Assembly (NCBI GenBank): GCA_026416665.1 | Contig: JAOAET010000041.1 | Location: 10,425 to 74,424 of the forward strand | Source: Candidatus Omnitrophota bacterium | Lineage (GTDB): Bacteria; Omnitrophota; Gorgyraeia; Gygaellales; Profunditerraquicolaceae | Direction of reading: 5' to 3' | DNA: 64,000 nt | In this document: in pieces, positions 5,341-30,016 of the stretch | Numbering within the stretch: the stretch's first letter is position 1 | Layout: the number at the start of each line of letters is the position of its first letter | Notes under the pieces: generated by a model | Told to the model about the DNA's origin: nothing | The model's input: the letters and a program-made list of their open reading frames with translations, nothing else | Database searches by the model: none | Made by a program: the position numbers and the translations under genes

Positions 5341-5706
5341 ATGGCGTTTAAAGTTCTTGTAGTGGATGATGAAGAAGATATACGTCAGATTATTGCTAAA
5401 CGGCTTAATCAGGAAGGTTTTGTTGTTTTTACAGCAGGAGATGGTTTTGAGGGTCTGTCTTTGGCAAAAAGAGAAATTCCTTCTTTGATTCTTTTAGATG
5501 TTGTTATGCCTTACTGTGATGGTTTTACTATGTTAAAAGAATTACAAAAAGATGAGGTTCTACGTCAAATTCCTGTTATTATGGTAACCGCTAAAGGGCA
5601 TACAGAATCAATATTTGAAGGTCAACGTTTGGGTGTAACAGATTATATTGTAAAACCAATAGACTTCCAGCAACTTCTTCATTATATCCGTAAATACTTG
5701 TATTAA
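5341..5706 (+). CDS. single-domain response regulator (CheY-like receiver)
   Basis: VLVVDDEEDIR ... LILLDVVMP ... DYIVKP receiver motifs. 121 aa. Confidence 0.8.
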   Translation: MAFKVLVVDDEEDIRQIIAKRLNQEGFVVFTAGDGFEGLSLAKREIPSLILLDVVMPYCDGFTMLKELQKDEVLRQIPVIMVTAKGHTESIFEGQRLGVTDYIVKPIDFQQLLHYIRKYLY

Positions 5707-7022: not shown

Positions 7023-7652
7023 CTAGAATCGTTTTGTTAATATTCCCATTAAAAATACAATAGCAGAAATTATTAAGGCTGTTCCACAGATTGCAATCAT
7101 TATCTTATAAACCTTTTGAGAAATAAGTTTTTTTCCTTGATAACAACCCCAGGCAATACAACTATACCAAGCAAAGTCAGCACTGATATGGCTAATAAAA
7201 AATATCGTAAGACCGACAATTCCTTTCTTCAAACTTGCTAGTACCAGCCCAGCGCCAATAGTTAACCACCAGAAAAGCCAATAAGGATTAGCTAAACTAA
7301 CTGTTAATCCGAGAATAAAAGAATTATTCATTGCTTCTTTTTTGTCTATATTTTCAAAACTAATTTTACTTATTGATATTAACATACTTATTCCCAGCCA
7401 GAAAAGAATAGATGTTCCTAAAAGACCGATGGTGGATATAACCAAGGACATATGTTTTATCTTCGCAACACCTACTGCCAATATAATGACCATGATAAAC
7501 TCTAAGAAGGCATGTCCTAGGCAAATTAAAGGTCCTGACTTAAAGCCTCTTTTTGAACTTTGGGCAATTACCACCGCAAGGAGTGGACCGGGTATAAGCG
7601 CTCCTGACAAGGCTATTAAAAAAGATAACCAGGCAATTTTTAGATATTCCAT
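7023..7652 (-). CDS. LysE/RhtB-family amino-acid exporter
   Basis: LIPGPLLAVVIAQSSKRGFKSGPLICLGHAFLE N-terminal LysE signature. 209 aa polytopic membrane protein. Confidence 0.65.
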   Translation of the reverse strand: MEYLKIAWLSFLIALSGALIPGPLLAVVIAQSSKRGFKSGPLICLGHAFLEFIMVIILAVGVAKIKHMSLVISTIGLLGTSILFWLGISMLISISKISFENIDKKEAMNNSFILGLTVSLANPYWLFWWLTIGAGLVLASLKKGIVGLTIFFISHISADFAWYSCIAWGCYQGKKLISQKVYKIMIAICGTALIISAIVFLMGILTKRF

Positions 7653-7723: not shown

Positions 7724-8941
7724 TTGCAAAAAAATAGCTATATGCCTGAGCATGTAAAAAGAATAGCTCTGGTTACTGATGATGAAAATTTAAAAAAAAT
7801 TCTGTATTTCTGTTTTGATGGTTGGGGATATGAGGTCTTCCTGTTATCTACAGCAGCTTTGAAGACCAATACTATTAAGAAAATATCTCCAGATGCAATT
7901 GTTATTGACGTAGCAGGTGCACGTAAGGAAGATTTAGCTTTTTGCTTACTTTTGAAACAAGACTTTATTACCGCCTTTATTCCACTTATTACCCTCATTG
8001 ACAAACGACATCTAAGACAAGAACTACTGCATTCTAAATACGGTGTTGATGACTATCTTATTAAACCACCAGACCCCTTAGATCTGAGAGTGCGTATTGA
8101 AATGGCGCTAAAACGGTCACGTTATAATTATTGTTGCCATCCTTTAACAGGTTTACCTGGTTCTCCATTAATTGAAGATGTACTAAATGATTGTATAAAA
8201 AGTAAAAAATCTTTTTTTCTTGGTTATGTTGACATTGACAACTTTAAATTCTATAACGATGTTTATGGCTATCTACGAGGAGATAGAATAATTATGCAAA
8301 CCGCTTATATACTTTACACCTCTTTAAAACACTTTGGAACTAAAAATGATTTTCTAGGACACATAGGCGGTGACGACTTTGTGTTTATAAGCTTTTCAGA
8401 AGATATAGAGCCGATTTGTCGCCACACCATTTTTTTGTTTGATGCCCTTATGCCTTTTCACTACACTAAGGAAGATAGACAGCGAGGTTATATTATTGCT
8501 AAAGACCGCAGGCGTAAATTTATTCAGGTAGGATTAGTTAGTTTATCTATTGCTTTAGTAAACCAGTCTTCTGAGCAACCTGTTCTTAGTATAATACAGA
8601 TAAATGAAAGAATTACAGAGCTTAAACGCTATCTTAAAGAAATACCTGGGTCTAAATTTATGGTTGATCGACGTAATCAGCCGAAGAATAGACAGATAAA
8701 GAATCACGCTCAGGGATTTTTGAAGAAAGATATATTTGGGCAAGTGTATCAACCACTTGGGCAAATCCTGCTAGAAAAAAAATTACTTACCTCTGAACAG
8801 CTGGATGAAGCCTTAAGGATACACTGGCGGCGTGATGTGCCTTTAGGTGATACACTCGTAGAAATGGGCTTGGTCAGCCCAGAACAAATACAAGCAGCTC
8901 TAATTGAACAAAAAGAGCGTTTACTGCCTGTTCTGGATTAG
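7724..8941 (+). CDS. receiver (REC)-GGDEF-like (variant GGDDF)-MshEN (T2SSE_N-type c-di-GMP-binding) domain protein
   Basis: The N-terminal REC-like domain reads VTDDEN...AIVIDV...DYLIKP. A central GGDEF-fold follows, with the motif written as HIGGDDFVFI. The C-terminus PLGDTLVEMGLVSPEQIQAALIEQ fits the MshEN 24-residue c-di-GMP-binding motif (LGxxLxxxGxxxxxxLxxALxxQ). Confidence 0.7.
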   Translation: MQKNSYMPEHVKRIALVTDDENLKKILYFCFDGWGYEVFLLSTAALKTNTIKKISPDAIVIDVAGARKEDLAFCLLLKQDFITAFIPLITLIDKRHLRQELLHSKYGVDDYLIKPPDPLDLRVRIEMALKRSRYNYCCHPLTGLPGSPLIEDVLNDCIKSKKSFFLGYVDIDNFKFYNDVYGYLRGDRIIMQTAYILYTSLKHFGTKNDFLGHIGGDDFVFISFSEDIEPICRHTIFLFDALMPFHYTKEDRQRGYIIAKDRRRKFIQVGLVSLSIALVNQSSEQPVLSIIQINERITELKRYLKEIPGSKFMVDRRNQPKNRQIKNHAQGFLKKDIFGQVYQPLGQILLEKKLLTSEQLDEALRIHWRRDVPLGDTLVEMGLVSPEQIQAALIEQKERLLPVLD

Positions 8942-8957: not shown

Positions 8958-9671
8958 ATGTCCTATACACTTTTATTAGTTGACGACGACGCCCAGTTTC
9001 GCGCAGAGTTTGCTGAAAGCTTTTCAGAGTTTTCTACTATTCAGGCAAAAGACGCTCAAGAGGCTTTAGAGATTCTAAGACGGCCTAATTTAATTGACCT
9101 GGTTATTGTTGATGTAAGGCTTCCTTCTATGAATGGTATTGAGTTAATACGGAAGATAAAACAGATAAAACCGGATCTTGGAATAGTTGTTTTAACAGGT
9201 TATAGTTCTAAGGATATAGCTATAGAAGCCCTTAAGGCCCATGTAGATGATTATCTTGAGAAGCCTATTGATATAGAGGTAGCAAAAAAAGTTATCTTAG
9301 AGCTATTGTTACAGCGAAGAGGAAAAGGCTCAAGAAACAACTATTATGAAGACAAAATATCTCAGGCAAAAGAAATTGTTTTACGTAATAGCGATAAAAA
9401 AATAAGCCTCAAAGAAGTAGCAGAGATTATTTGTCTTAGTCCCAAATACTTTAGTAGGCTATTTGAGGAAAAAGCAGGGATGCGTTTTACCGAGTTTCGT
9501 CTTAAGGCAAAAATTGACTATGCCAAGAAGCTGTTGAAGAATAGTTCTAAAACTATTGACCAGATATCTGATGAGTTAGGTTACAAAAATACTGAATCAT
9601 TTATTCGCCAGTTTAAGAAAAGAACCTCTTTTACACCTACAGAATTTAGACAAAAAAAGAAACGTTTTTAA
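8958..9671 (+). CDS. response regulator with AraC-type HTH output domain
   Basis: Receiver motifs LLVDDD ... LVIVDVRLP ... DDYLEKP, then an AraC HTH (ISLKEVAEIICLSPKYFSRLFEE...GYKNTESFIRQFKK). I chose the start at 8958 (AAGGAG RBS 7 nt upstream) rather than the overlapping ATG at 8904. Confidence 0.75.
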   Translation: MSYTLLLVDDDAQFRAEFAESFSEFSTIQAKDAQEALEILRRPNLIDLVIVDVRLPSMNGIELIRKIKQIKPDLGIVVLTGYSSKDIAIEALKAHVDDYLEKPIDIEVAKKVILELLLQRRGKGSRNNYYEDKISQAKEIVLRNSDKKISLKEVAEIICLSPKYFSRLFEEKAGMRFTEFRLKAKIDYAKKLLKNSSKTIDQISDELGYKNTESFIRQFKKRTSFTPTEFRQKKKRF

Positions 9672-9682
9672 GGAGTTTTACA

Positions 9683-10972
9683 GTGAAGCAGAAAGTGAGA
9701 AGACAAATCAATTTTAATGAGCAACTCCGAGTAATTAATAGCCGACTTAAACAAGAAATCCGTCAACGAAAGAAGGTTGAGGAAGAGTTAAAAAGTGCTT
9801 ACCAGCGTTTAGCAGATATTATAGAATTTCTGCCCGATCCAGTATTTGTTATTGATAAAGAAAAAAAGGTTATTGCTTGGAACAAGGCTTTAGAAGAAAT
9901 GACTTCTGTTAAAAAAGAAGAAATTATTGGCAAAGGTAACTTTGCTTATGCAGTGCCTTTTTACGGAAAGGCCAGACCTGTGCTTATTGACTTAATTTTT
10001 ATGGAAGATAAGGAAGTTGAAGCAAGATATAGTTTTGTGCGAAGGCAGGCAGATACGTTATTTGCTGAGGTTTTCGCACCGATGGTTTATGGTGGGAAAG
10101 GTGCCTTTCTGTGGCTTAAGGCATCACCATTATATGATAGCAAACATAACATAGTCGGTGCAATAGAGACAATTCGTGATATTACTCAACATAAAGAAGC
10201 AGAGGCGATTTTAAAGAAAGACAAAGAGAGTTTACAGCTACTAATGAAAGAACGTACAGAACAACTTCTTAAAGTGCAGAAGGAGTTAGCAGACGCAAGA
10301 CATTTATCAGAAATAGGCACACTTGCTGCCACAATAGCCCATGAGTTACGTAATCCTTTGGCAGCTATTCGTACAGCAGCCTATAACATAGGTAAAAAAA
10401 GTGATGACCAACGTTTAAAGCCGCATTTAGAGAATATCGATAAAAAAGTGGCGGAATGCGACCAAATCATTACTAATCTTTTGAACTATTCGCGGATTAA
10501 AACACCACATTTTGCTGAAGTAAAAATTCACCAGTTGTTAAACGAATGCATTGCACAAACACGTCAACGCTACAGTAGCTTAAAAATCAGATTAAGAAAA
10601 TTTTGTAATTGCAAAGAAAATGATACTATCTGCGCTGATGCTGTCCAGTTAAAAGAGCTTTTTAATAATGTCCTTAATAACGCCTTTGAAGCTTGTGAAC
10701 AAAATAAGGGTAGCATTACTGTGTATATTAATTATCAGCCCGCTAGTCATGTTACTGTGGTAATTGAGGATACAGGCATAGGTATACCTGCAGAGCATAT
10801 GAAACACCTTATGCAGCCATTTTTTACTACAAAGCAAAAGGGAACAGGTCTTGGTTTGGCAGTCTGTCAGCAATTAGTTAACTTACATCAGGGAACTATT
10901 AGTATTACCAGTAAGGTAGGTAAAGGTACACGCGTAACTATTAATTTACCCGCTGTTCATGACCGCTCATAA
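9683..10972 (+). CDS. PAS-domain sensor histidine kinase
   Basis: PAS region, H-box AHELRNPLAAI, and a HATPase_c G-box (GTGLGLAV). GTG start. Confidence 0.8.
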   Translation: MKQKVRRQINFNEQLRVINSRLKQEIRQRKKVEEELKSAYQRLADIIEFLPDPVFVIDKEKKVIAWNKALEEMTSVKKEEIIGKGNFAYAVPFYGKARPVLIDLIFMEDKEVEARYSFVRRQADTLFAEVFAPMVYGGKGAFLWLKASPLYDSKHNIVGAIETIRDITQHKEAEAILKKDKESLQLLMKERTEQLLKVQKELADARHLSEIGTLAATIAHELRNPLAAIRTAAYNIGKKSDDQRLKPHLENIDKKVAECDQIITNLLNYSRIKTPHFAEVKIHQLLNECIAQTRQRYSSLKIRLRKFCNCKENDTICADAVQLKELFNNVLNNAFEACEQNKGSITVYINYQPASHVTVVIEDTGIGIPAEHMKHLMQPFFTTKQKGTGLGLAVCQQLVNLHQGTISITSKVGKGTRVTINLPAVHDRS

Positions 10973-11187
10973 TCCTTTAAGTTATTTTTCTTTCTTAATT
11001 AATTGCTTTATCTCAAATTGAACTTTCAAAAATGCTGTTTTTTCAAGTAAAAGTAAAGTTGAAAACAAAGGTGGAAAAAAGTCAAAAGAAAGGGGAAAGA
11101 AGTGATTTACAAATTTATCAAATTATGTAAATATTTTAAGTGGGATAAAAGTACTTGATTTACAAAAGGATAAAATAGACAGAGATA

Positions 11188-11577
11188 ATGGAGAAAAAAA
11201 TTCTAGTAGTGGATGATGATAAAGAATTCTTAGAAGAACTACAAGAAACCTTAACTTTAAGTGGCTATGAGGTTAAGGCTATTTCTGATCCACGGAAGGC
11301 ATTGGCTGTAGCTATGCAACTTAAACCCGATATTATTGTGCTGGACCTAAAAATGCCAGGTATGACAGGATTTGAGGTAGTAAACAAAATTAAGAGTACA
11401 CCAGTTACTGAGCATATCCCTATTATTGCGATGAGCGGATTTTTTACTGCTGAGCAGGATGATAGTCTTTTGTCTTTTTTTCAGATTCATCATTACCTAC
11501 GTAAACCTTTTAATCCTCTTGACATAATTGCCCGTATTGAAGAGGTTTTTAAAGAAACAGCACATAAAAGGCATTAG
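11188..11577 (+). CDS. single-domain response regulator
   Basis: ILVVDDDKEF ... IIVLDLKMPGMTG ... YLRKP receiver motifs. 129 aa. Confidence 0.8.
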   Translation: MEKKILVVDDDKEFLEELQETLTLSGYEVKAISDPRKALAVAMQLKPDIIVLDLKMPGMTGFEVVNKIKSTPVTEHIPIIAMSGFFTAEQDDSLLSFFQIHHYLRKPFNPLDIIARIEEVFKETAHKRH

Positions 11578-11941
11578 CTGAAATATTAATAAAATATCAA
11601 TATCGTAAGTCTCTTATAATAAAACAGCACTCTTTAAATATCCCTGCCTATAATTTGTTACTTATTATTAAAAGTTATACTGTTTTATCGCTGTATTTTT
11701 GAAGATTCTGATTATCTATTAATTTTTCTCATAAGCAGAGAAGAATAATTAGATAAACTAAAAGTTACGTTAAAAATTATTTCTCAGACAGCATTGTTTC
11801 TGGCTCAGAGCTTATTTTAGGACATTAGCAGAATCTGTAGGAACCCAATTTTAAAAAAATTGCACAGGAGATTACATTATCAACGCTTTTTAGAAGGTTA
11901 ATTGATTGACTTTTATAAATAGCATTGATATAATCTGAATT

Positions 11942-13609
11942 ATGAAAATAGACAAACTTTTGACCATTGATGAGCGTAAAATCTTGCAGGGTAGCTCTAT
12001 TGCGCATTTTCTTATTGACAGAAACCACACCATTGTTGCTTGGAATCCTGCCTGTGAGGCATTAACTGGTTTTTCCGCCCGCCAAATGATAGGTACTTCT
12101 AATCAGTGGAAACCTTTCTATAATAATCCCCGGCCATGTTTATGTGATTTATTGGTAGACAAAGCTTCTTATCATACAATTAAGCGCCACTATAAGGGAA
12201 TGCAAATAAAACGTTGGGGATTAATCAGAGGGGCCTATGAGATAGAGGGCTTTTTTTCTGAAATGCATAAAAAAGGTAAATGGCTTCGCTTCACTGCGGC
12301 TCCTTTGTTAAATAAAAAAGGGGACATTATCGGTGCGATAGAAACACTTGAAGACATTACTGAACGTAAGCAAGCAGAAGAAAAAACAAAAGCGCTTAAT
12401 CGTAAACTTATTGTTACCAATCGCAAACTACGGATGGTTGCTCTTCGTGATATGCTTACAGGGCTTTTTAATCAACGGTATCTTGAAGAAGTCCTCGAAG
12501 CAGAGTTTTTGCGAGCAAAACGTTATGGGCAGGCCCTTTCTATTATTATGCTTGATATTGATTATTTTAAATCTATCAACGAACGCTATGGCCGTAAATT
12601 TGGAGACCAGGTACTTGTACAGTTAGCCGTATTTCTTAAAAAAATAGTAAGGAAATACGATATCCTAGTGCGTTATGGAGGTGAGGAATTTATAATTATT
12701 TCTCCTGGAAGTAACTTTTATCAAACCAGTGTTTTGGCTCGTAGAATAATGGATGAGATAAATCTGTATTCTTTTGGAGATACAAGACATTCTTTGAAGC
12801 TTAAACTAAGTATGGCTGTGGTTTGCTTGCCAGATGATAAAATAGTTAACAGTGAAGACCTTCTGCGTATTGGAGAAGAGTTGTTATTAAAGGCAAAAGA
12901 GGCAGGGGGCAACAGAATTTTCAGTAACCAAGATAAAAAACAACAAATTTTATCTACAAAGCAAAAACGTAAGCAAAAGGAAACTATTGAGAGTCTACGT
13001 TATCAACTACAGCAAATAACTAGGCGTGCTAATCAGAATTTGATGGAGGCAATTTTTGCTTTTGCTAAGGCGATTGAGTTACGTGACCATTATACTGGAG
13101 AACACGTTGAACAGACTGTTTATTATGCCACACAGATTGGACGTATGTTGAAACTAAGTGAGGAGGAGATTGAAAATATAAGGCAGGCAGCGGTGTTACA
13201 TGACCTTGGTAAAATTGGTATAAGCGATAATATACTTCTTAAGAAAGGTAAACTTTCTGAAGAAGAATATCTGCAGATTAAAAAACACCCCGAGATTGCT
13301 GCGGATATTTTAAGACCGATTCATTTTCTACGTTCGGTCATTCCTTACATACTTTATCACCACGAACGATGGGATGGTAAGGGTTATCCCAGTGGTCTTA
13401 AAGGGCAGCTTATTCCTGTGGGTGCAAGAATTATTGCCTTGGCTGATGTTTTTCAGGCACTGACTTCTAATCGTCCCTATCGAAAGGCTTTTACAAAAGA
13501 AGAAGCAATTCGTATCATTAAACAAGGTTCAGGTAAACAATTTGACCCAAAGATTGTAAGGGCTTTTTTAGCATTAATTAAGAAAAAAAATATCCACTCT
13601 GTTAAATAG
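11942..13609 (+). CDS. PAS-GGDEF-HD-GYP protein (diguanylate cyclase fused to c-di-GMP phosphodiesterase)
   Basis: N-terminal PAS domain. The GGDEF domain has an intact RYGGEEF motif. The C-terminal HD-GYP has HDLGKIG and HHERWDGKGYP motifs. Confidence 0.8.
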   Translation: MKIDKLLTIDERKILQGSSIAHFLIDRNHTIVAWNPACEALTGFSARQMIGTSNQWKPFYNNPRPCLCDLLVDKASYHTIKRHYKGMQIKRWGLIRGAYEIEGFFSEMHKKGKWLRFTAAPLLNKKGDIIGAIETLEDITERKQAEEKTKALNRKLIVTNRKLRMVALRDMLTGLFNQRYLEEVLEAEFLRAKRYGQALSIIMLDIDYFKSINERYGRKFGDQVLVQLAVFLKKIVRKYDILVRYGGEEFIIISPGSNFYQTSVLARRIMDEINLYSFGDTRHSLKLKLSMAVVCLPDDKIVNSEDLLRIGEELLLKAKEAGGNRIFSNQDKKQQILSTKQKRKQKETIESLRYQLQQITRRANQNLMEAIFAFAKAIELRDHYTGEHVEQTVYYATQIGRMLKLSEEEIENIRQAAVLHDLGKIGISDNILLKKGKLSEEEYLQIKKHPEIAADILRPIHFLRSVIPYILYHHERWDGKGYPSGLKGQLIPVGARIIALADVFQALTSNRPYRKAFTKEEAIRIIKQGSGKQFDPKIVRAFLALIKKKNIHSVK

Positions 13610-13618
13610 TTCTTATCT

Positions 13619-14305
13619 ATGTTTTCCTTCTTCTCTTACCCTATATTCTTTTATACGCTGGTTCTATTATTAATGGTTACATCCTTATGTGCTATTTTCT
13701 TACAAGAGAAGGAACAACGACGCACTATTCAAAAAAAGGAAAAACAGCTTGAAGAATATAGAAGACGAATTATGCAGTTAGAGGCATTAGGAAATAAAAA
13801 AGAAGAATTTCAGCAAAAGATACAACAATTAGAGAAGATTATTCAAGAAAACGAGGAAAATTTTGTAAAGTATTCAGAAGAAATTAAGCAAGCAACTGAA
13901 ACCAAGGAAATATTGACTAACCAATTAGTTTTATTACAATCACAATTAGACACAAAAGAAGATACACTCCAGCAGATGAAGCTTGCTAAGCAAAGGTTGG
14001 AAGAAGAAATTACCCGTCTACAACAAGAATTAGAAACAAGTAAGAGAGAATTAGAATTATCTAATCAGATGTATAACGGCCTTAAAGGTCAATTTGATGA
14101 GATGGAAGATAAATATAATCAACTTTTCCAGAAGTTTGTTGCATTACAGCAGAAACAGGAAAAAGAAAATACCAGAGATTATTCTTTAGATAATACACCT
14201 CATCCAGAACAGACTGAACAGCAAGACATTGCTGCAAAAATTAAAATACCAAATCTTGCTGCAGGGCTTCAGCAGTTCAATGAACCTAAGAACGATTCTT
14301 CTTAA
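13619..14305 (+). CDS. membrane-anchored coiled-coil protein
   Basis: N-terminal TM helix, then heptad-rich Q/E/K/L sequence. 228 aa. Confidence 0.5.
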   Translation: MFSFFSYPIFFYTLVLLLMVTSLCAIFLQEKEQRRTIQKKEKQLEEYRRRIMQLEALGNKKEEFQQKIQQLEKIIQENEENFVKYSEEIKQATETKEILTNQLVLLQSQLDTKEDTLQQMKLAKQRLEEEITRLQQELETSKRELELSNQMYNGLKGQFDEMEDKYNQLFQKFVALQQKQEKENTRDYSLDNTPHPEQTEQQDIAAKIKIPNLAAGLQQFNEPKNDSS

Positions 14306-14548
14306 TAATCCAAAGATTTATAAAGCAAAAGTTGGTCGGTGTTGTTTTCTTATTTATATTACAACTTATTAAATAAAAAAATTAGTAGGATATAGGTTTA
14401 CATATAAAACTATTTTTGGGGAAATACAATGAAGAGAAAGATTTTTCAGATAAAAAAGATTTGGATATGCCCAGACGGATTTTGTGTAGCTACTTGAAAG
14501 TTAGTAGAGTATCGCTGTAATTTATTCCAAAAGGTAAAGGAGTAAAAA

Positions 14549-14893
14549 ATGGATCGAAATACTGAAAAATTTGTGGGTTACTGTTTGTTAATATTGGGAT
14601 TATTTATCATTATTTTTTCGGCTTATCAGGTATACATTGTTTTTGTAGGCATAGCAAATCCACCGCGCGTGATGAATTTTGAAGATATTACTATGCAACT
14701 ACCTAATATTCAAGGGAAAGTTGAGATATTTGCTTCTGATATACTTAACAAAATAGGTAATCTAATACTATGGTATCTAGTTATGTTTTTTATGGTTAGT
14801 TGTGGGCATAAAATTGCTAACCTGGGAATTTTTCTTCTACGGCAGATTAAAGTCAGCGTGAAAGCAAAAGAGGATATTTCACAAGATAGTTAA
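14549..14893 (+). CDS. small hypothetical membrane protein
   Basis: 114 aa with two hydrophobic helices and an RBS-like AAAGGAG upstream. Confidence 0.4.
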   Translation: MDRNTEKFVGYCLLILGLFIIIFSAYQVYIVFVGIANPPRVMNFEDITMQLPNIQGKVEIFASDILNKIGNLILWYLVMFFMVSCGHKIANLGIFLLRQIKVSVKAKEDISQDS

Positions 14894-14898
14894 CTTAA

Positions 14899-15342
14899 TT
14901 GTTAAGAAAAATGTTTATTTTTTTAATAAGATGGATTATAGATGCGGTTAGCTTGGCGTTTGTAGTATGGTTATTTCCAAACGTTAGTGTGGATTCTTGG
15001 AGAACACTTCTCTTGGCGGCATTTTGCCTGGGGTTGGTTAATGCTACACTTAAACCTTTTTTATTATTGTGGACATTACCTCTTTCTTTATTAACATTCG
15101 GTTTTTTTACATTTGTTATCAACGGATTGCTTTTCTATGGGGTTTCAAAATTTGTGAAGGGCTTTTTTGTAGAGAACTTTACTAGTGCCTTCTTAGCCGC
15201 TTTAGTAATGTCGATAGTTAGTTTCATTGGAAATATTTTATTGGCACATCAAGGCAAGATGAATATTTATTTTTATCGTGACAATTGGTCTACGAGAAGG
15301 TATAAGGACAGTATTGATGTCAGAGCAAAAAAATTGAAATAA
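14899..15342 (+). CDS. DUF360 (YvlD/Phage_holin_4_2 family) membrane protein
   Basis: WIIDAVSLAFVVWLFPNVSV...LGLVNATLKPFLLLWTLPLSLLTFGFFTFVINGLLF matches the DUF360 consensus closely. Confidence 0.7.
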   Translation: MLRKMFIFLIRWIIDAVSLAFVVWLFPNVSVDSWRTLLLAAFCLGLVNATLKPFLLLWTLPLSLLTFGFFTFVINGLLFYGVSKFVKGFFVENFTSAFLAALVMSIVSFIGNILLAHQGKMNIYFYRDNWSTRRYKDSIDVRAKKLK

Positions 15343-17091: not shown

Positions 17092-17652
17092 ATGACTGTT
17101 TTAAATCTTATTCCTCAGCAGGTAACTTCGCGTATCTTAACTTTATTAGAACGCAAGAAACTCATAAAAACTTTAATACCTTCTCAAAAAATTCTCAATT
17201 GTAATGCTCCCCAAGGAGCATTAGAGGTAATTTACAAATCTTGCCACCGCTATGGTAGCCACAAGTTGATTTGCGTGAAGAAGAATTCTGAGCATATAAG
17301 ACTTACTTATCACGGAGATAATGAAGAATTCATTTTGGTAAATCCCAATGGTCATGTATATCGACCTCTATATATTGTCATTGCTCTTGATAAAAAAGAT
17401 GTTTTGTTACGGAAGATAAAAAATAGATGTTTAAGCAGTCGTGATTTTATGTGTCTTGTTATGGACTACCACAACCCAATGACTACGGTTTTTACTATGC
17501 TTAAAGACACTGTGCATTGTGAAGTTACTTCTAAGGGGAGGGGAAGAGGGCCTGTTTTCTTTGTAAGTGAGCCTAGTCGTTTGAAGGCTCATACAGTGCG
17601 TACTCCTGGATATCAACTTTTAATTTTAAACGGAATGCAAAGGAGAAGATAA
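17092..17652 (+). CDS. hypothetical basic protein, no recognisable domain
   Basis: 186 aa ORF directly abutting exbD. Not Pro-rich (not TonB-like). Confidence 0.4.
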   Translation: MTVLNLIPQQVTSRILTLLERKKLIKTLIPSQKILNCNAPQGALEVIYKSCHRYGSHKLICVKKNSEHIRLTYHGDNEEFILVNPNGHVYRPLYIVIALDKKDVLLRKIKNRCLSSRDFMCLVMDYHNPMTTVFTMLKDTVHCEVTSKGRGRGPVFFVSEPSRLKAHTVRTPGYQLLILNGMQRRR

Positions 17653-22831: not shown

Positions 22832-23089
22832 ATGATAAGAATAATTACCAAAAAATCTGGTGTTGACAATAAACTTATTTCAGCAAAACAGATAATGGCA
22901 AAGTATGGGATTACTTACCAGACAATAAATCACTATACTGATTTAGGGTTATTACCCTTAGTAGAAAAAAAAGGAAACGTTCGTTTCTATAATGAAAAAC
23001 AAGTATGTAAACGCTTATCTAAGATAAAGCATCTTGCTCAGGAAGGATATTCTCTTCGGCTTATTCGCAAAAAACTATTAGGCATATGA
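22832..23089 (+). CDS. MerR-superfamily HTH-only small DNA-binding protein (module A)
   Basis: 85 aa. ISAKQIMAKYGITYQTINHYTDLGLLP...GNVRFYNEKQV...GYSLRLIRKKL fits a MerR N-terminal winged HTH with no effector domain. Paralog of 30003..30233. Confidence 0.6.
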   Translation: MIRIITKKSGVDNKLISAKQIMAKYGITYQTINHYTDLGLLPLVEKKGNVRFYNEKQVCKRLSKIKHLAQEGYSLRLIRKKLLGI

Positions 23090-24102
23090 TATCAAAAAGA
23101 ATATTTTTTATTGTTGGGATAACCAGTCTGATTCTCTTTTTAAATAACAGCATGGTAGTTGCTGAAGAAGTTAAAGAACCACCTAGTAATACGCAAAAAA
23201 TGATTGGTGAGTTTTCTGGTTGGAATGTACCTGTGCCTGTTTCTAACTATAATTTTGTTAAGTATGCAATTTACCTGTTTGGAACTCGCTGGGGAGAGCA
23301 GCCGACTACTGAACAAGAATTAGAAGACAGGGTATGGGAACAACTTATTCTTTCCTATGAAGCTTTCAGGCGTAATATAAAAGTTGAGGAAGCTGAGATT
23401 GATGAAGAAATAGATAAGATGTTGAAGTCAGACAAAGTAAATTTTGACTGGCGCAAGGACCAAGATGCCTTTAAAAAGTGGGTAAAAGATAAAGCAAATA
23501 TTGAGATAAATTTGTTCCGTGAGATACTAAGGCACCTGTTGCAGCTAGAAAAACTTCGGAAAGAGGTATTAGATTCTTTCACCGTAAGTGTAACCGAAGA
23601 AGAGGCACTTAATGAATTTATTAATGAATATAATACTATGGAATTAGAATTGGTGCAATTTGACGAACTTAAAGATGCAGAGAAATTTTTTCAGGAGATG
23701 CAGGATCCTAAGAAGTGGCAAGAGCAGGCGGCTAAAGAACCCAAACGTTATCAACACCCCGGTTTTGTTTCTTTTGAGTTTTTAATTAATATGTGGAAAA
23801 TACCTAAAGAGGATCTTTATAAAATGCTAGAGATGGAGGTGGATTCTATTTATCCACCGCGTCCGATTTATCGCGGATGGGGTGTTTTTAGGATATTAAA
23901 AAAACGACCAGCTGATCCTAAAGAATTTCCCCAGGTACGCGATTCGTATTTTAAACAAGTAGAGATGCTTAAAAAATATGATAAGCTAAAAGAGTGGTTA
24001 AATAAATTAAAAGAGGATGCCAAAATAAAAATATACCCTAAGGTAGAAGAAGATAAAAAGTCTAGCAATAAACTTAACCCAAAGAGAATACTTTTCTGCT
24101 AA
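23086..24102 (+). CDS. secreted periplasmic protein, possibly SurA-N-like chaperone fold
   Basis: Signal peptide and a K/E-rich helical sequence. The domain call is weak. Confidence 0.35.
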   Translation: MISKRIFFIVGITSLILFLNNSMVVAEEVKEPPSNTQKMIGEFSGWNVPVPVSNYNFVKYAIYLFGTRWGEQPTTEQELEDRVWEQLILSYEAFRRNIKVEEAEIDEEIDKMLKSDKVNFDWRKDQDAFKKWVKDKANIEINLFREILRHLLQLEKLRKEVLDSFTVSVTEEEALNEFINEYNTMELELVQFDELKDAEKFFQEMQDPKKWQEQAAKEPKRYQHPGFVSFEFLINMWKIPKEDLYKMLEMEVDSIYPPRPIYRGWGVFRILKKRPADPKEFPQVRDSYFKQVEMLKKYDKLKEWLNKLKEDAKIKIYPKVEEDKKSSNKLNPKRILFC

Positions 24103-24105
24103 AAG

Positions 24106-24642
24106 ATGGCGAATAAAAAACGGGTTATTTTATTGGAAAATATTGTAAGATTCTTTTACGATGAAAGAAATCAATTGGATATCAAAAAAATTAATATTTT
24201 TCTCTTCTGTATCTTGATAGTAGTTATTCTTAATTTTGCGCGTCTGGTTATAACTTCCGCACAAGCAATAAGTAGGATTGATCTTGAAAAAGGCATTTCT
24301 TTGGAACCACCTGCTCTTTTGTCAACCCCAAAAGAAGACAGTAATTTACCAGAACTAAATAATTACTTACCGGCTATAAAACAACGCAATATCTTTAGAA
24401 TGGGAAAGTTTAGTCAACTGAGAGAGGAAACTACTTCTGGTAAGGCTCAGGAGATCAAGGCACAATATCAGCTAGTAGGTATTTCTTGGTCAGATGACCC
24501 TGATGCACTCATTGAAGACACTAAGCTACAGAAGACTTATTTTGTAAAAAAAGGCCAGTTGGTCGGAGATATGAAGGTAGAAGCAATCTATCGTGATAGG
24601 GTGGTATTGCGGTTAGGACAAGACCTTATTGAGTTAAAATGA
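24106..24642 (+). CDS. PilP/GspC-like secretin-interacting protein (N-terminal TM + C-terminal beta domain)
   Basis: TM helix. The C-terminus YQLVGISWSDDPDALIEDTKLQKTYFVKKGQLVGDMKVEAIYRDRVVLRLGQDLIEL follows the PilP/GspC HR-domain pattern (G.VKV..I..D.VVL). Confidence 0.45.
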   Translation: MANKKRVILLENIVRFFYDERNQLDIKKINIFLFCILIVVILNFARLVITSAQAISRIDLEKGISLEPPALLSTPKEDSNLPELNNYLPAIKQRNIFRMGKFSQLREETTSGKAQEIKAQYQLVGISWSDDPDALIEDTKLQKTYFVKKGQLVGDMKVEAIYRDRVVLRLGQDLIELK

Positions 24643-26474
24643 GATATTTCTTTGTAAGAGGGTTTAAAATCAAGTTTTGCTTTTTCGTTTTTTGTTTAGT
24701 AGCTTTTTTTTACATACTTGATTTTTTAAAAGTTGAGGCAGAAGAATTGAAGCAACTTGCTCAGGTACCCTCAATTACTCCTTTGATGGTGGGCCCTTCC
24801 TATGAAGAAAACAAAGTAAATATAGGTATGCAGGGAACTATTTCTCTTGACTTACGTAATATAGATATTGTAGATGCATTAAAGTTTCTTGCTACAAAGG
24901 CAAAAATAAATATTATCACCACCAAAAATGTTGCAGGAAGAGTTACATTGTTGGTAGAGAATGCAGTTATTCAAGATGTCTTTGATATAATATTGCGCAG
25001 TAATAATCTTGCTTACGATAAGAAAGGTGACATATATAATGTGATGACCCAAGAAGAATACCGTATCTTATATGGGAAAAACTTCTCAGATGTAAGACAA
25101 GTAAAAGTGTTTTATCTTAAATATGCAATCCCTGAACAGGCTTTTGCTCTTATTGATATGTTAAAAAGTGAAATAGGTCGCGTTTTGGTTGATCCAGAGA
25201 CAGGTAGTATTATGGTGATGGATTCTCCTGAAAGGCTTACTTTGATTGAAGAGGTATTGAAAGATTTTGAAGCAAAAAATACCATTAAGGTTATAAAACT
25301 CAATTATGCAAAGGCAAAAGATATTGAAGAGGCTTTAAAGAATCAACTTGATATCAAAAAGGTAGGATTAATTAAGGCAGACGAGCGTGGTAATCAGATA
25401 ATTGTCCAGACACTGCCGGAACGGATGGAACAGATTGAGGCATTAGTGAAAGCTTTAGACCAAAAGACAAGACAAATCATTATTGAAGTAAGTATAGTAC
25501 AAATCAATTTAAATGATATACTTACACAAGGAATTCAATGGGAAGGCCTGTTTAATCTTTTTTCTAATTCCAAGAAGCTATTGTATCTTGGTTCCTATCC
25601 TTTCAGCTCTGTTCAAGCTTCTAACGACCCTTGGCGGTCAAGATATTCCACCTGGCAGACAGTAGGAAATGTAGGTTCTTATCCTTTTAGTGGCACTACT
25701 TCTAACTACTCAGCCAGCAGACCAGTAATTTCAACTAGCACTATGCATTTAGGTCTAGTAGGCACACAAGACTTTGATATATTGTTGCAATATCTTCAGA
25801 CATTGGGTAGTACTCGTATAATCTCTAATCCTAAGATTGCAGTAACCAACAATCAAGAGGCGAAGATTCATGTAGGACAAAAAGAGGCATATGTAACCAC
25901 AACAACTACTACTGGTCAGACTACTAATACTGTCTCAGAAGAGGTGAATTTTGTTGATGTCGGTGTGATATTGTCCGTAGTTCCCACTATTAATGAAGAG
26001 GGTTTTATTAATTTAAAGGTAAAAGCAGAGGTAAATTCAGTTATTGATACCCTAATTACTCCGACTGAAAATAAAATACCTATTATTGATACTTCCTTAG
26101 CAGAAACCACTGTTCTTGTGAAAGAAGGTGCCACAGTTATTATTGGGGGATTACGTAAAGATACAAAAAATGAGCTGATTAAACAAACTCCCTATTTAAG
26201 TAAAATACCATTATTCGGAAATCTTTTTAAATTTAAGACCAAAGAAACTGTGCACAGCGAGTTAATGATTGTAATGACACCGAAAATTATAAGTGGAGAG
26301 GTATTTGTAGCTACTGCGGAAGGAAAACTTGCTGGACAGTCAGGCTTAAAACCCACAAGAGATTATGAAAGTAAATTGGAGGATTTTAAGCCACAACCTT
26401 CAGCTGATAAGGTATATGTACCAATAGGAAAAGATGAAAGACTACAACTTAGACCATTACGAAAACAAAACTAA
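24639..26474 (+). CDS. secretin (PilQ/GspD/MshL-like outer-membrane channel), module A
   Basis: N-terminal secretin_N-type repeats. C-terminal secretin domain: NPKIAVTNNQEAKIHVG...VKEGATVIIGGL...TPYLSKIPLFGNLFK...ELMIVMTPKII. Confidence 0.8.
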   Translation: MRYFFVRGFKIKFCFFVFCLVAFFYILDFLKVEAEELKQLAQVPSITPLMVGPSYEENKVNIGMQGTISLDLRNIDIVDALKFLATKAKINIITTKNVAGRVTLLVENAVIQDVFDIILRSNNLAYDKKGDIYNVMTQEEYRILYGKNFSDVRQVKVFYLKYAIPEQAFALIDMLKSEIGRVLVDPETGSIMVMDSPERLTLIEEVLKDFEAKNTIKVIKLNYAKAKDIEEALKNQLDIKKVGLIKADERGNQIIVQTLPERMEQIEALVKALDQKTRQIIIEVSIVQINLNDILTQGIQWEGLFNLFSNSKKLLYLGSYPFSSVQASNDPWRSRYSTWQTVGNVGSYPFSGTTSNYSASRPVISTSTMHLGLVGTQDFDILLQYLQTLGSTRIISNPKIAVTNNQEAKIHVGQKEAYVTTTTTTGQTTNTVSEEVNFVDVGVILSVVPTINEEGFINLKVKAEVNSVIDTLITPTENKIPIIDTSLAETTVLVKEGATVIIGGLRKDTKNELIKQTPYLSKIPLFGNLFKFKTKETVHSELMIVMTPKIISGEVFVATAEGKLAGQSGLKPTRDYESKLEDFKPQPSADKVYVPIGKDERLQLRPLRKQN

Positions 26475-26488
26475 CCAAAGAGCTCTTT

Positions 26489-29400
26489 ATGAGAAAAATA
26501 ATTTTTAACAAAAAAATTGTGGAAGAGGCATTGTTAATATCAATTATTGGGTTAGTTATTGCAGGTTTAAACGAACCAACATTTGCAAAGGAAAGAAGTA
26601 AATCAAAAACAGAAACCCAACTTCGGGAAGTAGACATTCTTAGGAAAGAATTGTTGAAGGCCCAAGAGGCTTTGGCTAATTTAAAATCCTTATATGCTGA
26701 TAAAGAAATTCAAGTGAAGCAGCTTTCTTTAAAATTGACTAAACTTGAAGAGGATTTTAGACAAGCACAGGAAACAGTTATTAGATTAAGAAGAGACAAA
26801 GAGGAATTAAGCCAACTTCAGACAAAACTTTCTTTGCAGCTAAAATCTTTAGAGACAGAAAAAGCAATTTTAAAGAAACAAAATGAGCTTCTTTCAACTT
26901 GTAATGAGGAAAATAAGGCGAAGACAAAAGAATTAACGGTACTGAGGGCAAACTGCGCTAAACAAAATCAAGACTTTTTGAATAAACAACAAGAGCTAGA
27001 GGCTACAATTGCAGCTTATGAAAACAAAAATCAACAGCTTATACAACAAAAGGCAGAATTAGAGTTAAAATATGCTTCTTGTAGTCAAGCCTTAACTGAA
27101 CGTAAAAACTTTGAAATTAGTTGCTTGGCACAGAAAGAGTCACTGCTAAAAGAATTACAAGACGTTAGACGGCAAAGAGATATGTTACAGAAAGATTTGG
27201 CTTCTGCTCAGGCTCAGACTGCAGAGGTATCTAATCTTTACGAGCGCCTAAAGCAACAACAGCAGATGGAAGAAGAACTTGGTCAGTTGCGTCGTAACGT
27301 TGCGCAGTTGCAAAATGAACTGAAAATATCACAAGAGCAAAATAAAAAGCTTTCGGAGATAGCTTCTAAATACAATAAACAAGCAGACTTAGCTGATCAG
27401 CTGTATCAACTACGAAAGCAATTGTCTATTTGTGAGGCGCAACGGATCCAACTAGAAAAACAACAACAGCAGCCCGATGTTCAAATTAGCCGTTTACGTT
27501 CTGAGATTGCACAGCTTGAAAAACAAAAATTGATGTTGGAAGAGACTTGTAATAAAGCTAAAAAGCAGCATGATGAATTAGGACGCAAGCTATCCGAAAT
27601 GAGCAAAAAATTACAGTTACTGCAAAATGAAAATAAGATGCTTAAGGAAAGTGTTTTGGCTTCGGATAAACAGACGTTGCTAAAAGAACTTGAGCTTCTA
27701 CGTAGGGATTTAGAAAAGAGCCAAGAAGAGAAGAAAAAGATAGAAGATTCCGCAAGACAAAATAAGCAAGAAACCCAAAAGGCACAACAACAGCTTGAGG
27801 TATTACGTAATAAACTAACTGCTTTAAAGACCTGTGAAGAAAATATAGAAAAACAAAGACAGCAATTAGCGGATTGTCAAGAACGTGTAAATCAAATAGA
27901 GTTACTTAAAAAGGAATTAGAATCCTTACGCACTAAGAATCAACATTTACAACAGCAAGTTCAGCAATGCACAGCGACTAATCAGCAGGGAAATACTTCC
28001 TTAAATAAAGAATTGGAGAAAGCTAATAAAGAACTGGAATTATTGCGTCATACTAACCAGCAGTTAGAGAAAAAAGCGCAAGAAATTTTTACCTTAAGAC
28101 AGAAAGAATCAGATGAGAAAACAAAGGAAATAGCTCTCCTCAAGAAAGAAATGGAAGATTTACGTAATATAAACAATAAACTCCAGCAAAGAATACAGCA
28201 GGCCGATGAAGAAGTAAAAGAGAAGAAAAAATGTGCTGAAGAGATTAATCTATTAAAAAGAGAACTTAAACAGGTGAATGACAAAAATAGGCAACTAAGT
28301 AAAAAAATAGAAGGGTGCCAAGCAGGAAGTCAACAGCAGCTGGTTGAATGTAACAAGAGAGTTGAATATCTTAACAAAGAATTAGAACAACTACGTAGCG
28401 TAAATAAAAAATTACAACAGAAAAGCGAAGAGGTTCTGACAACTCCAAAAGATTCCGCGCAGGAGAATAAAGAATACATTCAGTTAAAAGAAAAATATAG
28501 GCAATTAGAACAGGAACGCAATCGCCTTCAAGAAGAAATTAAGCAATTACAAAAACAACAGGCAGATTTAGTTACTCAATATGAAGCACGGTTAAAGAAA
28601 GAACCTATGCTTTCTAAGTCTTCCACTGATAGTAGCGAAACCGTCGCAATCCTCAAACAGGAGTTAACTAAAGCGCAGGAATTGTCCTATCAACTGGTTA
28701 AGGAGAAAGCGGATTGCCAGAAACGGTACGAGGAGCTTAGCGAACAGCTAAATAAAGCTTTATTAGTTAAAGAAGCTCAAGAGAAAGAAAAACAGGATAT
28801 AGAGCGGAAAAATAAAGAACTAGAAGAACAATACAAAAACTTATCATTACAGCTTTCGCGGCTAATGATACAGTATGGAGAATTAGGACAACAAAATCAA
28901 CAACTAACCAATGCTAACGCCAATTGCCGTAGTGAAATTGTTTCTGTTCAGAACAAACTACAACAAGCAGAACAATTGGTATCTTCACTTCAGTTAGAAG
29001 TGGAAAGGATGAAAAAAGAAAATAATGACCTCAATGTAAAGTTTTTTAACGAAAAGTTACAACGAGAACAAGATGTTGCTTTGGTGCAGGCGCAATGTAA
29101 CCAGCAGATTGCCTTAAAAGAGGGTGAATATGTTCAGCTTTCGAAAAAATTTGAAGATTTTCGTAATCAAAAACAGGTTCAGGTTACTGCTTTAGAAAAT
29201 GAACTTGCTTCGGTTAAGAAAGAATTAGCCGATGCACAAAATCTTTCCTTTCAGATGGTTCAGGAAAAAGGTTCCCTTTCCGGGCAACTTAAAAAGCTAA
29301 CAGAACAGTTACAAGCCACAGAAAATCAAAATACTCTTTTAATACAGCAAAAGACAGAATTAGAAAAACAAAATGCTTTCTTAAAGGAACAGTATATCTC

Positions 29401-30016
29401 TATATCCCAGGAATTAAAAAAGGTTCAGGAAGATACCAAACGAATAGAAAAAGTAAAGATTCCGCAGGAATTAGAGCGTTGTGTAAGTGAATTAAATTCT
29501 CTTAAGAGAGAGCTTGCTAATAAAGATGCTGAGTATCTTAAGAAGATAAAAGAATATGAACAGAAGTATAAAGAAACCAGTAGTACAGATAAGAATAAAC
29601 AAAGTCTTATTAAGGAACTTGCGCAGTTAAAAACCAAGTATGAGGAATTAGAAAGAAGATACCAGATGTCTGAGAAGATTCGTAAAGATTTAGAGGCAAT
29701 TAAAGAGCGTTATGGTAAATTACCCGAAGAGAATGCCAATCTTCACTATAATTTAGGGGTTTTATACGCAGAAAAGAAAGATTACGATAAGGCAATAACA
29801 GAATTTAAAAAGGTTATTGAGCTTAAACCTCGTGATGCAGAGGCGCATTATAATCTTGGAGTAATTATTGGTGAGTATTTAGGTAACCGCAAAGAAGCAC
29901 TACCATATCTTGAAAAATTTCTAGAATTAGCACCGCAGGACCCCGAAGCAGATAAGATTCGCAAATATATTGTTACCTGGAAAACTTTTAGTGAGGGACA
30001 AGATGACCAGCGCTAA
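26489..30016 (+). CDS. giant (1175 aa) membrane-anchored coiled-coil protein with C-terminal TPR domain
   Basis: N-terminal TM, about 1000 aa of Q/E/K/L heptad sequence, and a C-terminal TPR (HYNLGVLYAEKKDYDKAITEFKKVIELKPRDAEAHYNLG). Confidence 0.7.
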   Translation: MRKIIFNKKIVEEALLISIIGLVIAGLNEPTFAKERSKSKTETQLREVDILRKELLKAQEALANLKSLYADKEIQVKQLSLKLTKLEEDFRQAQETVIRLRRDKEELSQLQTKLSLQLKSLETEKAILKKQNELLSTCNEENKAKTKELTVLRANCAKQNQDFLNKQQELEATIAAYENKNQQLIQQKAELELKYASCSQALTERKNFEISCLAQKESLLKELQDVRRQRDMLQKDLASAQAQTAEVSNLYERLKQQQQMEEELGQLRRNVAQLQNELKISQEQNKKLSEIASKYNKQADLADQLYQLRKQLSICEAQRIQLEKQQQQPDVQISRLRSEIAQLEKQKLMLEETCNKAKKQHDELGRKLSEMSKKLQLLQNENKMLKESVLASDKQTLLKELELLRRDLEKSQEEKKKIEDSARQNKQETQKAQQQLEVLRNKLTALKTCEENIEKQRQQLADCQERVNQIELLKKELESLRTKNQHLQQQVQQCTATNQQGNTSLNKELEKANKELELLRHTNQQLEKKAQEIFTLRQKESDEKTKEIALLKKEMEDLRNINNKLQQRIQQADEEVKEKKKCAEEINLLKRELKQVNDKNRQLSKKIEGCQAGSQQQLVECNKRVEYLNKELEQLRSVNKKLQQKSEEVLTTPKDSAQENKEYIQLKEKYRQLEQERNRLQEEIKQLQKQQADLVTQYEARLKKEPMLSKSSTDSSETVAILKQELTKAQELSYQLVKEKADCQKRYEELSEQLNKALLVKEAQEKEKQDIERKNKELEEQYKNLSLQLSRLMIQYGELGQQNQQLTNANANCRSEIVSVQNKLQQAEQLVSSLQLEVERMKKENNDLNVKFFNEKLQREQDVALVQAQCNQQIALKEGEYVQLSKKFEDFRNQKQVQVTALENELASVKKELADAQNLSFQMVQEKGSLSGQLKKLTEQLQATENQNTLLIQQKTELEKQNAFLKEQYISISQELKKVQEDTKRIEKVKIPQELERCVSELNSLKRELANKDAEYLKKIKEYEQKYKETSSTDKNKQSLIKELAQLKTKYEELERRYQMSEKIRKDLEAIKERYGKLPEENANLHYNLGVLYAEKKDYDKAITEFKKVIELKPRDAEAHYNLGVIIGEYLGNRKEALPYLEKFLELAPQDPEADKIRKYIVTWKTFSEGQDDQR

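Follow-up and report, generated by a model that had tools for sequence, protein, structure and literature searches.

A REC-GGDDF protein with a C-terminal MshEN_N module in Candidatus Omnitrophota: a putative diguanylate cyclase that may be controlled by c-di-GMP binding in cis

Examination of a 64-kb window (64,000 nucleotides of contig JAOAET010000041.1 from a Candidatus Omnitrophota bacterium; G+C content 35%) drew our attention to a gene coding for a protein with three successive parts: a divergent receiver (REC) domain, a domain with the fold of diguanylate cyclases in which the signature motif reads GGDDF, and a C-terminal MshEN_N module predicted to bind cyclic di-GMP (c-di-GMP). This three-domain layout, put forward in the initial annotation of the gene, is borne out. 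In the reading that we favour, which we consider evenly poised between right and wrong, the GGDDF domain is a cyclase module whose control would have shifted from phosphorylation of the receiver to the binding of c-di-GMP in cis. The data establish the composition in domains, the folds, the conservation of residues, the absence of the inhibitory site (I-site) of canonical cyclases and a phylogenetic association of the tail with receiver decay; catalytic activity, the binding of c-di-GMP and the sense in which it would regulate are inferred.

The open reading frame (ORF) codes for 405 amino acids when counted from a TTG codon at position 7724 and for 399 from an ATG codon at 7742. The TTG is preceded by a good Shine-Dalgarno sequence (AGAAGG, 6-nt spacing), which the ATG lacks, and the ATG is the better fit to the N-termini of homologues, so that the start codon is ambiguous; residues are numbered here from the ATG. 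An identical protein is present in NCBI in its 405-amino acid form, with 'diguanylate cyclase [Candidatus Omnitrophica bacterium]' as its sole annotation. A full-length AlphaFold2 (AF2) model built on 48 homologues reached a mean predicted local distance difference test (pLDDT) score of 83.9 and a predicted template modelling score (pTM) of 0.79, and a Foldseek search with this model gave PleD, WspR and DgcR as best matches in the PDB (E=1e-13 to 1e-17). The linker that separates the GGDDF domain from the tail is poorly conserved in the alignment of close relatives.

The central domain has a complete GGDEF fold. It is modelled with a pLDDT of about 85-96 (residues 141-308) and superposes on the GGDEF domain of GcbC with a template modelling score (TMt) of 0.82 and a root-mean-square deviation (rmsd) of 2.9 Å. 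The family models recognise it, with 41.3 bits for Pfam GGDEF (PF00990; cutoff 23.8) and 43.0 bits for TIGR00254 (GGDEF domain; cutoff 37.4), the Pfam alignment extending only over profile positions 6-87 of 161. Since the fold is complete, this half-length match reflects divergence of the sequence rather than truncation; a truncated GGDEF domain was considered and ruled out from the AF2 model and the Foldseek comparison. The equivalog model of the PleD family (NF007135) scores far below its cutoff (65.8 bits against 474). The signature motif is GGDDF and not GG(D/E)EF, and the change from Glu to Asp at its fourth position, noted in the initial annotation, is thus confirmed. All close relatives (48/48) and all relatives of the cross-phylum set (69/69) carry GGDDF. 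Among the top 150 representatives of the family, the only variants of the motif are AGDDF, GGDDY and GGDDL, and position 4 is never Glu.

Alignment with PleD indicates that the residues of the active site (A-site) that bind metal, guanine and phosphate are kept. The 48 close and the 69 cross-phylum relatives have invariant, or at least 90% conserved, equivalents of PleD D327, D329, F331-K332, N335-D336, G343-D344, GG(D)(D)F and K442. Within the cross-phylum set, H207, G209-G210-D211-D212-F213 and K299 are invariant, while D164, D166, the FK, ND and GD pairs and S304 reach at least 90%. D164, N172, D181 and K169 align directly to PleD D327, N335, D344 and K332 and are invariant. The equivalence of K299 and K442 is less certain: it was deduced from the position in the helix, and from alignment to the canonical GGDEF domain encoded in the same window and to the PleD sequence. 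In a profile search of the PDB, the alignment to PleD ends at about residue 216, and the equivalents of K442 and R446 are thus less secure. The Asn/Asp pair that specifies guanine is kept and the Ser of Hypr-type domains is absent.

No RxxD I-site was found in its usual place five residues upstream of the motif: position 200, where its Arg should stand, is occupied by Asn, Thr, Ser or Gly across the family, in close and cross-phylum relatives. In the canonical GGDEF gene of the window, RKYD aligns with this site. Receptor-type GGDEF domains normally retain the I-site and lose the A-site. The comparison with PleD therefore yields the opposite of the pattern expected for the receptor that the initial annotation had proposed. 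A second difference lies just before the motif. The Arg that canonical domains have at this place (R366 in PleD) touches the substrate and is joined to D292 by a salt bridge that is strictly conserved. Here both partners are replaced, the first by the invariant H207 and the second by Asn, Ser or His at position 133, and this two-sided loss indicates a coordinated remodelling of the site and not random decay.

The protein is far from isolated. More than 120 clusters of full-length relatives, 52-60% identical, share its three-part layout, and nearly all of them come from metagenome-assembled genomes (MAGs) of Omnitrophota. A scan of species-representative genomes with two peptides typical of the family, IKPPDPLD and GHIGGDDF, retrieved at least 600 stretches, and 597 of those listed encode relatives; they originate from Omnitrophota, Elusimicrobia, Gemmatimonadota, Acidobacteriota, Chloroflexi, Actinomycetota, Clostridia and others. 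An exhaustive HMMER search of 1.84 billion representatives returned 623 sequences at E<=1e-30. The REC-GGDDF family is thus large, unnamed and present in at least 600 species genomes of many phyla, and GGDDF is its strict signature rather than a mark of decay. The signature can be written H-[IV]-[GA]-G-D-D-[FYL] (loci L014-L084; representatives P0126-P0269).

The commonest form in this family is a REC-GGDDF protein of about 310 amino acids which ends right after the conserved '...DRR' and has no other output domain, so that the GGDDF domain itself must be the output there. Ten larger proteins were sampled (among them P0135, P0138, P0147, P0172, P0195, P0144, P0153, P0154 and P0155); five have the architecture REC-GGDDF-EAL, and REC-GGDDF-REC-HD-GYP and REC-GGDDF joined to a canonical GGDEF domain were also found. 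The presence of GGDDF beside a canonical GGDEF domain in one protein suggests that the two are not redundant. REC-GGDDF also occurs at the C-terminus of PAS/GAF hybrid histidine kinases. The partner domains fused to the module (EAL, HD-GYP, GGDEF and MshEN) are all c-di-GMP domains. The tailed architecture accounts for about 15 of the top 150 family representatives and is standard in a large lineage of Omnitrophota; 'uncommon', the term used in the initial annotation, is therefore appropriate for the family as a whole and not for that lineage. A different C-terminal extension of about 130 amino acids, resembling a second degenerate receiver, was observed in L079 and L081 (Roseiflexus) and in L046 (Acidobacteriota); that of L079 gives a weak match to a FleQ-type REC (22 bits). 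Several MAGs labelled Planctomycetia, Planctomycetales or Actinomycetota (L006, L025, L032-L034, L053, L057 and L063) encode proteins nearly identical in type to those of Omnitrophota, such as the L006 protein, 53% identical and with an MshEN_N tail, and these labels may result from mis-binning or mis-classification.

NCBIfam holds no model for the REC-GGDDF family, its PleD and DgcR models matching only far below threshold. Literature searches on GGDDF, IGGDDF, GGDEF-MshEN and c-di-GMP in Omnitrophota returned nothing on the family or on a GGDEF-MshEN fusion; the only proteins that turned up were GSU1937, PA3258, a Streptomyces EAL-GGDDF protein and DdpB of Bordetella.

The C-terminal tail consists of two copies of the 24-residue MshEN motif separated by the canonical 5-residue spacer (24+5+24 = 53 amino acids): PLGQILLEKKLLTSEQLDEALRIH-WRRDV-PLGDTLVEMGLVSPEQIQAALIEQ. 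The initial annotation was right about the motif but quoted only the second of these copies. The NCBIfam model NF053729 ('c-di-GMP_motif, MshE-related') matches the tail over all of its positions (1-53 of 53) with 59.5 bits against a cutoff of 38 (E=2.1e-16), and a GSPII domain of PilF matches it with E=2.5e-9. A loose regular expression for the motif, run on the six-frame translation of the window, matched the two tail copies only. The motif is far beyond chance. A separate AF2 model of the last 74 residues has a pLDDT of 85.4; it superposes on c-di-GMP-bound MshE (5HTL_B) with an rmsd of 0.7 Å over 56 columns (TMq 0.74) and on PilF GSPII-B with 1.0-1.2 Å. The top 17 Foldseek matches of the tail are all MshEN or GSPII domains, with weak E-values (0.06-0.7), the domain being short.

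A search with the Pfam model PF05157, recommended in the initial annotation for detecting the module, gave no match in this protein. In the full-length relatives L010 (residues 397-480) and L082 (residues 388-474), PF05157 falls on the T2SSE_N1 region, downstream of the 53-residue motif. The present protein ends nine residues after the second motif copy and lacks the T2SSE_N1 (MshEN_C) subdomain. Since the Pfam model covers a subdomain that the protein does not have, the absence of a match is no evidence against MshEN. In the terms of Wang et al. 2016 (PMC5013675), the tail is 'MshEN_N only'.

Motif 1 matches 8 and motif 2 matches 9 of 11 consensus positions. The residues that contact the ligand through their backbone (L2, G3) and the hydrophobic positions L6, L17 and L21 are 85-100% conserved in the 48 relatives. 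Both motifs depart from the consensus at position 1, where they have Pro, and motif 1 does so also at positions 10 (Lys) and 24 (His). Arg is not required at position 1: PilF GSPII-B, with Lys and Leu there, binds at 6 nM, and GSPII-C, which has a Pro, at about 500 nM (PMC11731258). NfrB, whose module starts with 'PLGQILLE' and is also devoid of Gln at position 24, has a Kd of about 1 µM for c-di-GMP, whose binding activates its enzyme domain (PMC8669469). Given the conserved key positions, the dispensable Arg and the likeness to NfrB, binding of c-di-GMP by the tail is probable.

It could be asked whether the GGDDF domain has lost all catalytic function and the protein is instead a receptor or adaptor of c-di-GMP that acts through its MshEN_N module, perhaps with GTP bound at the GGDDF site, and signals by protein contacts. 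We regard this as rather unlikely, and it is the alternative that survives best. Several of the points that speak for it weigh at the same time against the reading that we favour. The catalytic base, proposed to act across the dimer, is the fourth residue of the motif, and its function could be impaired by the shorter side chain of Asp (PMC8835794); PA3258, a GGDDF-EAL protein, has no cyclase activity (cited in PMC8835794). H207 sits where canonical domains have the Arg that contacts the substrate, the Pfam GGDEF model aligns with the first half of the domain only, and in the family the module often precedes EAL, HD-GYP or canonical GGDEF domains, as is typical of regulatory, GTP-sensing degenerate GGDEF domains. 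The well-supported MshEN_N module also speaks for a receptor. A point against the favoured reading only is that motif 1 of the tail has Pro and His in place of R9 and Q32, both reported as important for binding in MshE.

Against a dead domain stands the pattern of conservation, with the A-site kept and the I-site lost. The invariance across phyla of GG-DD-F, of the pair of Asp in the metal site and of the Asn/Asp that read guanine is hard to explain without chemistry, and that of both motif Asp is best explained by catalysis. The dominance of stand-alone REC-GGDDF forms and the lack of a conserved partner gene in the neighbourhood also fit poorly with an adaptor. Finally, a GGDDF domain can be active: that of GSU1937, the only one examined directly, functions in vivo and loses its activity when the motif is changed to GADDF (PMC8835794). 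Taken together, the activity of GSU1937, the retention of the A-site without an I-site, the stand-alone forms and the invariance of Asp across phyla make a working cyclase the likelier state of the GGDDF domain. Of the receptor with a non-canonical GGDEF domain proposed in the initial annotation, the c-di-GMP module remains, and the idea of an inactive domain is weakened under the refuting condition set there, a tolerated Asp at position 4. The product of the module is probably c-di-GMP, given the intact guanine-reading Asn/Asp and the fact that all fused partners are c-di-GMP domains.

The receiver is divergent. Its Pfam REC (PF00072) score is 23.0 bits, under the 30.2 cutoff, compared with 104-121 bits in the short forms and 63-73 bits in the relatives with a full MshEN. 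Short-form relatives have a textbook receiver, with DD(D/E)P, D...MP, Thr86 and K-P-F. The pocket of the window protein comprises the acidic pair T12-D13, the acceptor D56, I86 and K108, with no 'MP' after D56. Among the close relatives, D56 is kept in 48/48 and K108 in 47/48; the conserved Thr/Ser is replaced by Ile at position 86 in 48/48, the acidic pair reads SS in 43/48, and the 'MP' has disappeared. Nearly all members of the tailed clade have Ile or Val at position 86; L055 and L082 keep Thr, but Ser replaces their acceptor Asp. The acceptor is also lost in the tailed relatives P0141, P0152 and P0164.

These data bear on a second alternative, that of a classical cyclase of the PleD/WspR type in which the adjacent PAS histidine kinase would phosphorylate D56 and thereby cause dimerisation, the tail adding product inhibition or localisation. 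D56 and K108, invariant or nearly so in the subclade, the conservation of D13 in this protein, the textbook receivers of the short forms and the response regulator and PAS kinase pair that begins 17 nt downstream are in line with such a mechanism. We nevertheless consider it improbable. The Ile at position 86, the SS pair, the loss of 'MP' and a REC score below threshold make phosphorylation gating of this protein, which the initial annotation had suggested, doubtful; moreover, the acceptor itself has disappeared in five tailed relatives and the kinase neighbourhood is not conserved.

The decay of the pocket is associated with the tail. Among independent representatives at 50% identity, a non-canonical pocket was found in 11/14 tailed and 21/120 untailed proteins (Fisher p 7e-6), although the tailed forms belong to a single clade, so that this p value overstates the association, a further point against the reading that we favour. 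In a tree of the shared REC-GGDDF core, which is neighbour-joining and without bootstrap support (another point against the same reading), the MshEN-bearing proteins form one clade of Omnitrophota or probably mis-binned MAGs. The full-MshEN forms (about 485 amino acids; L010, L011, L013, L055 and L082) branch first and the MshEN_N-only proteins are a derived subclade; L012 has lost its tail. The pocket is still canonical in three full-MshEN representatives, and it seems from this that the tail was acquired first and the receiver decayed afterwards.

A third alternative, in which the remodelled site would make or bind another nucleotide (cGAMP, pGpG or a linear product), has in its favour the invariant, family-wide replacement of E by D, of R by H and of GRN by G-S-x and the fact that the characterised GGDDF enzyme GSU1937 makes cGAMP besides c-di-GMP, but is very improbable in view of the intact guanine-specifying Asn/Asp, the absent Hypr-type Ser and the fused partners, all specific to c-di-GMP.

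Under the favoured reading of a GGDDF cyclase controlled by ligand binding in cis, the REC-GGDDF module would have an active site that is remodelled yet conserved and would convert GTP to c-di-GMP as a dimer. In the Omnitrophota lineage, the module would have gained a C-terminal MshEN, later trimmed to the 53-residue four-helix bundle of MshEN_N, and after this gain the phospho-acceptor pocket would have decayed, leaving a receiver-like domain that may now serve mainly as a dimerisation scaffold. The c-di-GMP bound by the tail could come from the protein's own activity or from another cyclase, for example the PAS-GGDEF-HD-GYP protein encoded 3 kb downstream; this protein and the stand-alone HD-GYP protein of the window (Table 1) may supply or remove the ligand. 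Binding would alter how two GGDDF domains meet, and the tail would thus provide product control to an enzyme without an RxxD I-site. We favour negative feedback, the tail being a substitute for the I-site, as the direction of this regulation. Positive feedback, which would make the protein a self-amplifying switch, is a live alternative because ligand binding activates in MshE and NfrB. A broader evolutionary scenario, to be held only tentatively, would be that of an ancient phosphorylation-controlled REC-GGDDF family in which the Omnitrophota lineage swapped its input, yielding a cyclase gated through a receptor module other than the I-site, and in which the two Asp of the motif define a distinct catalytic variant.

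Comparison with characterised systems helps to situate the protein. With PleD, WspR and DgcR it shares a REC followed by a GGDEF fold, the best sequence and structure matches and the residues that bind metal and guanine; it differs from them by its GGDDF motif, the missing RxxD, the replaced R366-D292 bridge, the decayed receiver pocket and the additional MshEN_N. GSU1937 of Geobacter sulfurreducens also combines GGDDF with the absence of an EAL or HD-GYP partner (PMC8835794). It is, however, a HAMP protein of the membrane and carries the Hypr Ser, which allows the synthesis of cGAMP, in contrast to the guanine-specific Asp, REC and MshEN_N found here.

The closest parallel for the tail is NfrB of E. 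coli, an enzyme with a C-terminal MshEN-type module whose first motif is almost identical ('PLGQILLE...EQLD.AL') (PMC8669469). NfrB is a glycosyltransferase with full MshEN N and C subdomains, whereas in the present case the cyclase itself is attached and only MshEN_N is present. MshE and PilF GSPII-B (5HTL, 8PDK) have the same 24+5+24 motif and four-helix bundle (rmsd 0.7-1.2 Å, 32-40% identity), but their modules are N-terminal on pilus or secretion ATPases and are followed by T2SSE_N1, whereas this one is C-terminal, without T2SSE_N1 and with Pro/His for R9/Q32. Supplementary Table 4 of PMC5013675 lists three proteins that associate such modules with a receiver, all without GGDEF and in another order: Bd2402 (REC-MshEN_N-UNK), MXAN_7396 ((MshEN_N)2-REC-ACyc), which also has a nucleotide enzyme, and MXAN_2809 (MshEN-HD-GYP-REC-DUF4388), which also has an HD-GYP domain. 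Known fusion partners of MshEN include T2SSE ATPases, glycosyltransferases, REC, HD-GYP, CheA, CheX, class III cyclases and kinases; a GGDEF partner appears neither in the published architecture table (PMC5013675) nor in our full-text literature searches.

Examination of the gene neighbourhood gave no functional lead, and no conserved operon partner was detected: the surroundings of the homologues in L001, L002/L003 and L004 differ from one another. The only neighbour that recurs next to a homologue is the divergent LysE gene (L002/L003). The homologues in L002 (6530-7944) and L003 (1239-2653) are directly preceded by a pair of single-domain PilZ genes and by this divergent exporter gene. In L001, a complete Omnitrophota genome (CP070807.1), a 623-amino acid protein with MshEN (PF05157) and PilZ is encoded 4 kb from the homologue (13196-15067) and combines two different c-di-GMP receptor domains. 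In the window itself, the REC-AraC gene is probably co-transcribed with the REC-GGDDF-MshEN_N gene, and the region 8958-13609 directly downstream is a dense signalling cluster (Table 1).

Further downstream, the genes between 23086 and 38225 could form a c-di-GMP-linked system for the export of a surface polymer or pilus. No T2SSE traffic ATPase was found among the window ORFs scanned. Six ORFs of 178-338 amino acids, located at 551-1249, 13619-14305, 17092-17652, 23086-24642, 32946-33530 and 43409-44293, gave no Pfam match at E<=1e-5. The window also encodes a Wzz/GNVR/AAA_31 protein; in Methylobacillus, EpsG joins MshEN_N to AAA_31.

Table 1. Coordinates of the REC-GGDDF-MshEN_N gene, its domains and other features of the 64-kb window (residues numbered from ATG 7742)
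Feature	Position in window	Strand	Residues	Remarks
Single-domain REC	5341-5706			Upstream of the REC-GGDDF-MshEN_N gene
LysE-family exporter	7023-7652	-		Upstream, divergent
REC-like/GGDDF (GGDEF fold)/MshEN_N, whole gene	7724-8941	+		Open frame confirmed
Divergent receiver (REC)	7757-8122	+	6-127	AF2 model with alternating strands and helices, residues 7-127
GGDEF-fold domain, complete	8138-8677	+	133-312	From the 'PLTGLPG' turn to the conserved '...DRR'
Canonical position of the RxxD I-site	8339-8350	+	200-203	T-K-N-D; Arg missing
GGDDF motif	8366-8380	+	209-213	Asp at fourth position; H207 just before
Interdomain linker, variable, low-confidence	8678-8752	+	313-337	pLDDT 58-59 over residues 311-330
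MshEN_N module, predicted to bind c-di-GMP	8753-8911	+	338-390	NF053729, AF2 model, motif match
REC-AraC response regulator	8958-9671	+		Downstream, 17 nt after the stop codon; AAGGAG ribosome-binding site
PAS histidine kinase	9683-10972	+		Only nearby candidate kinase, should the receiver be phosphorylated at all
Single-domain REC	11188-11577			
PAS-GGDEF-HD-GYP, canonical	11942-13609			GGEEF motif, RKYD I-site; 3 kb downstream of the REC-GGDDF-MshEN_N gene
Secretin genes (two)	24639-26474 and 30235-31977			
Large TPR proteins	26489-30016 and 31986-32930			
AAA_22 ExeA/MshM-like ATPase	33532-34440			
Stand-alone HD-GYP	34464-35564			
590-amino acid ORF	35574-37346			No Pfam match
Wza-type Poly_export protein	37350-38225			
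Wzz/GNVR/AAA_31 protein	50073-52055			Chain-length determinant, tyrosine-kinase-like; no MshEN motif by regular expression

Diguanylate cyclases are normally restrained by their RxxD I-site, and MshEN is, to our knowledge, the class of c-di-GMP protein receptor with the highest affinity. If the tail does control the enzyme, it would represent a second, independent solution to the product control of c-di-GMP synthesis and the first case found of an MshEN regulating a cyclase. The observations also have consequences for genome surveys: censuses based on the motif would score REC-GGDDF proteins as 'degenerate or inactive' GGDEF, and Pfam-based screens miss MshEN_N-only receptors, which NF053729 detects. 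Domain shuffling occurs often in c-di-GMP signalling, and a fusion of this kind is not astonishing. The more notable by-product of this work is the GGDDF family, large and so far unstudied. If the broader scenario of a swapped input is true, the tail would be a new product-feedback clamp or a self-amplifying switch, and the invariant Asp pair would mark a widespread, never-studied catalytic variant of the GGDEF fold. Omnitrophota are uncultured and often ultra-small bacteria, and a signalling protein that is nearly universal among them offers a useful handle on their biology.

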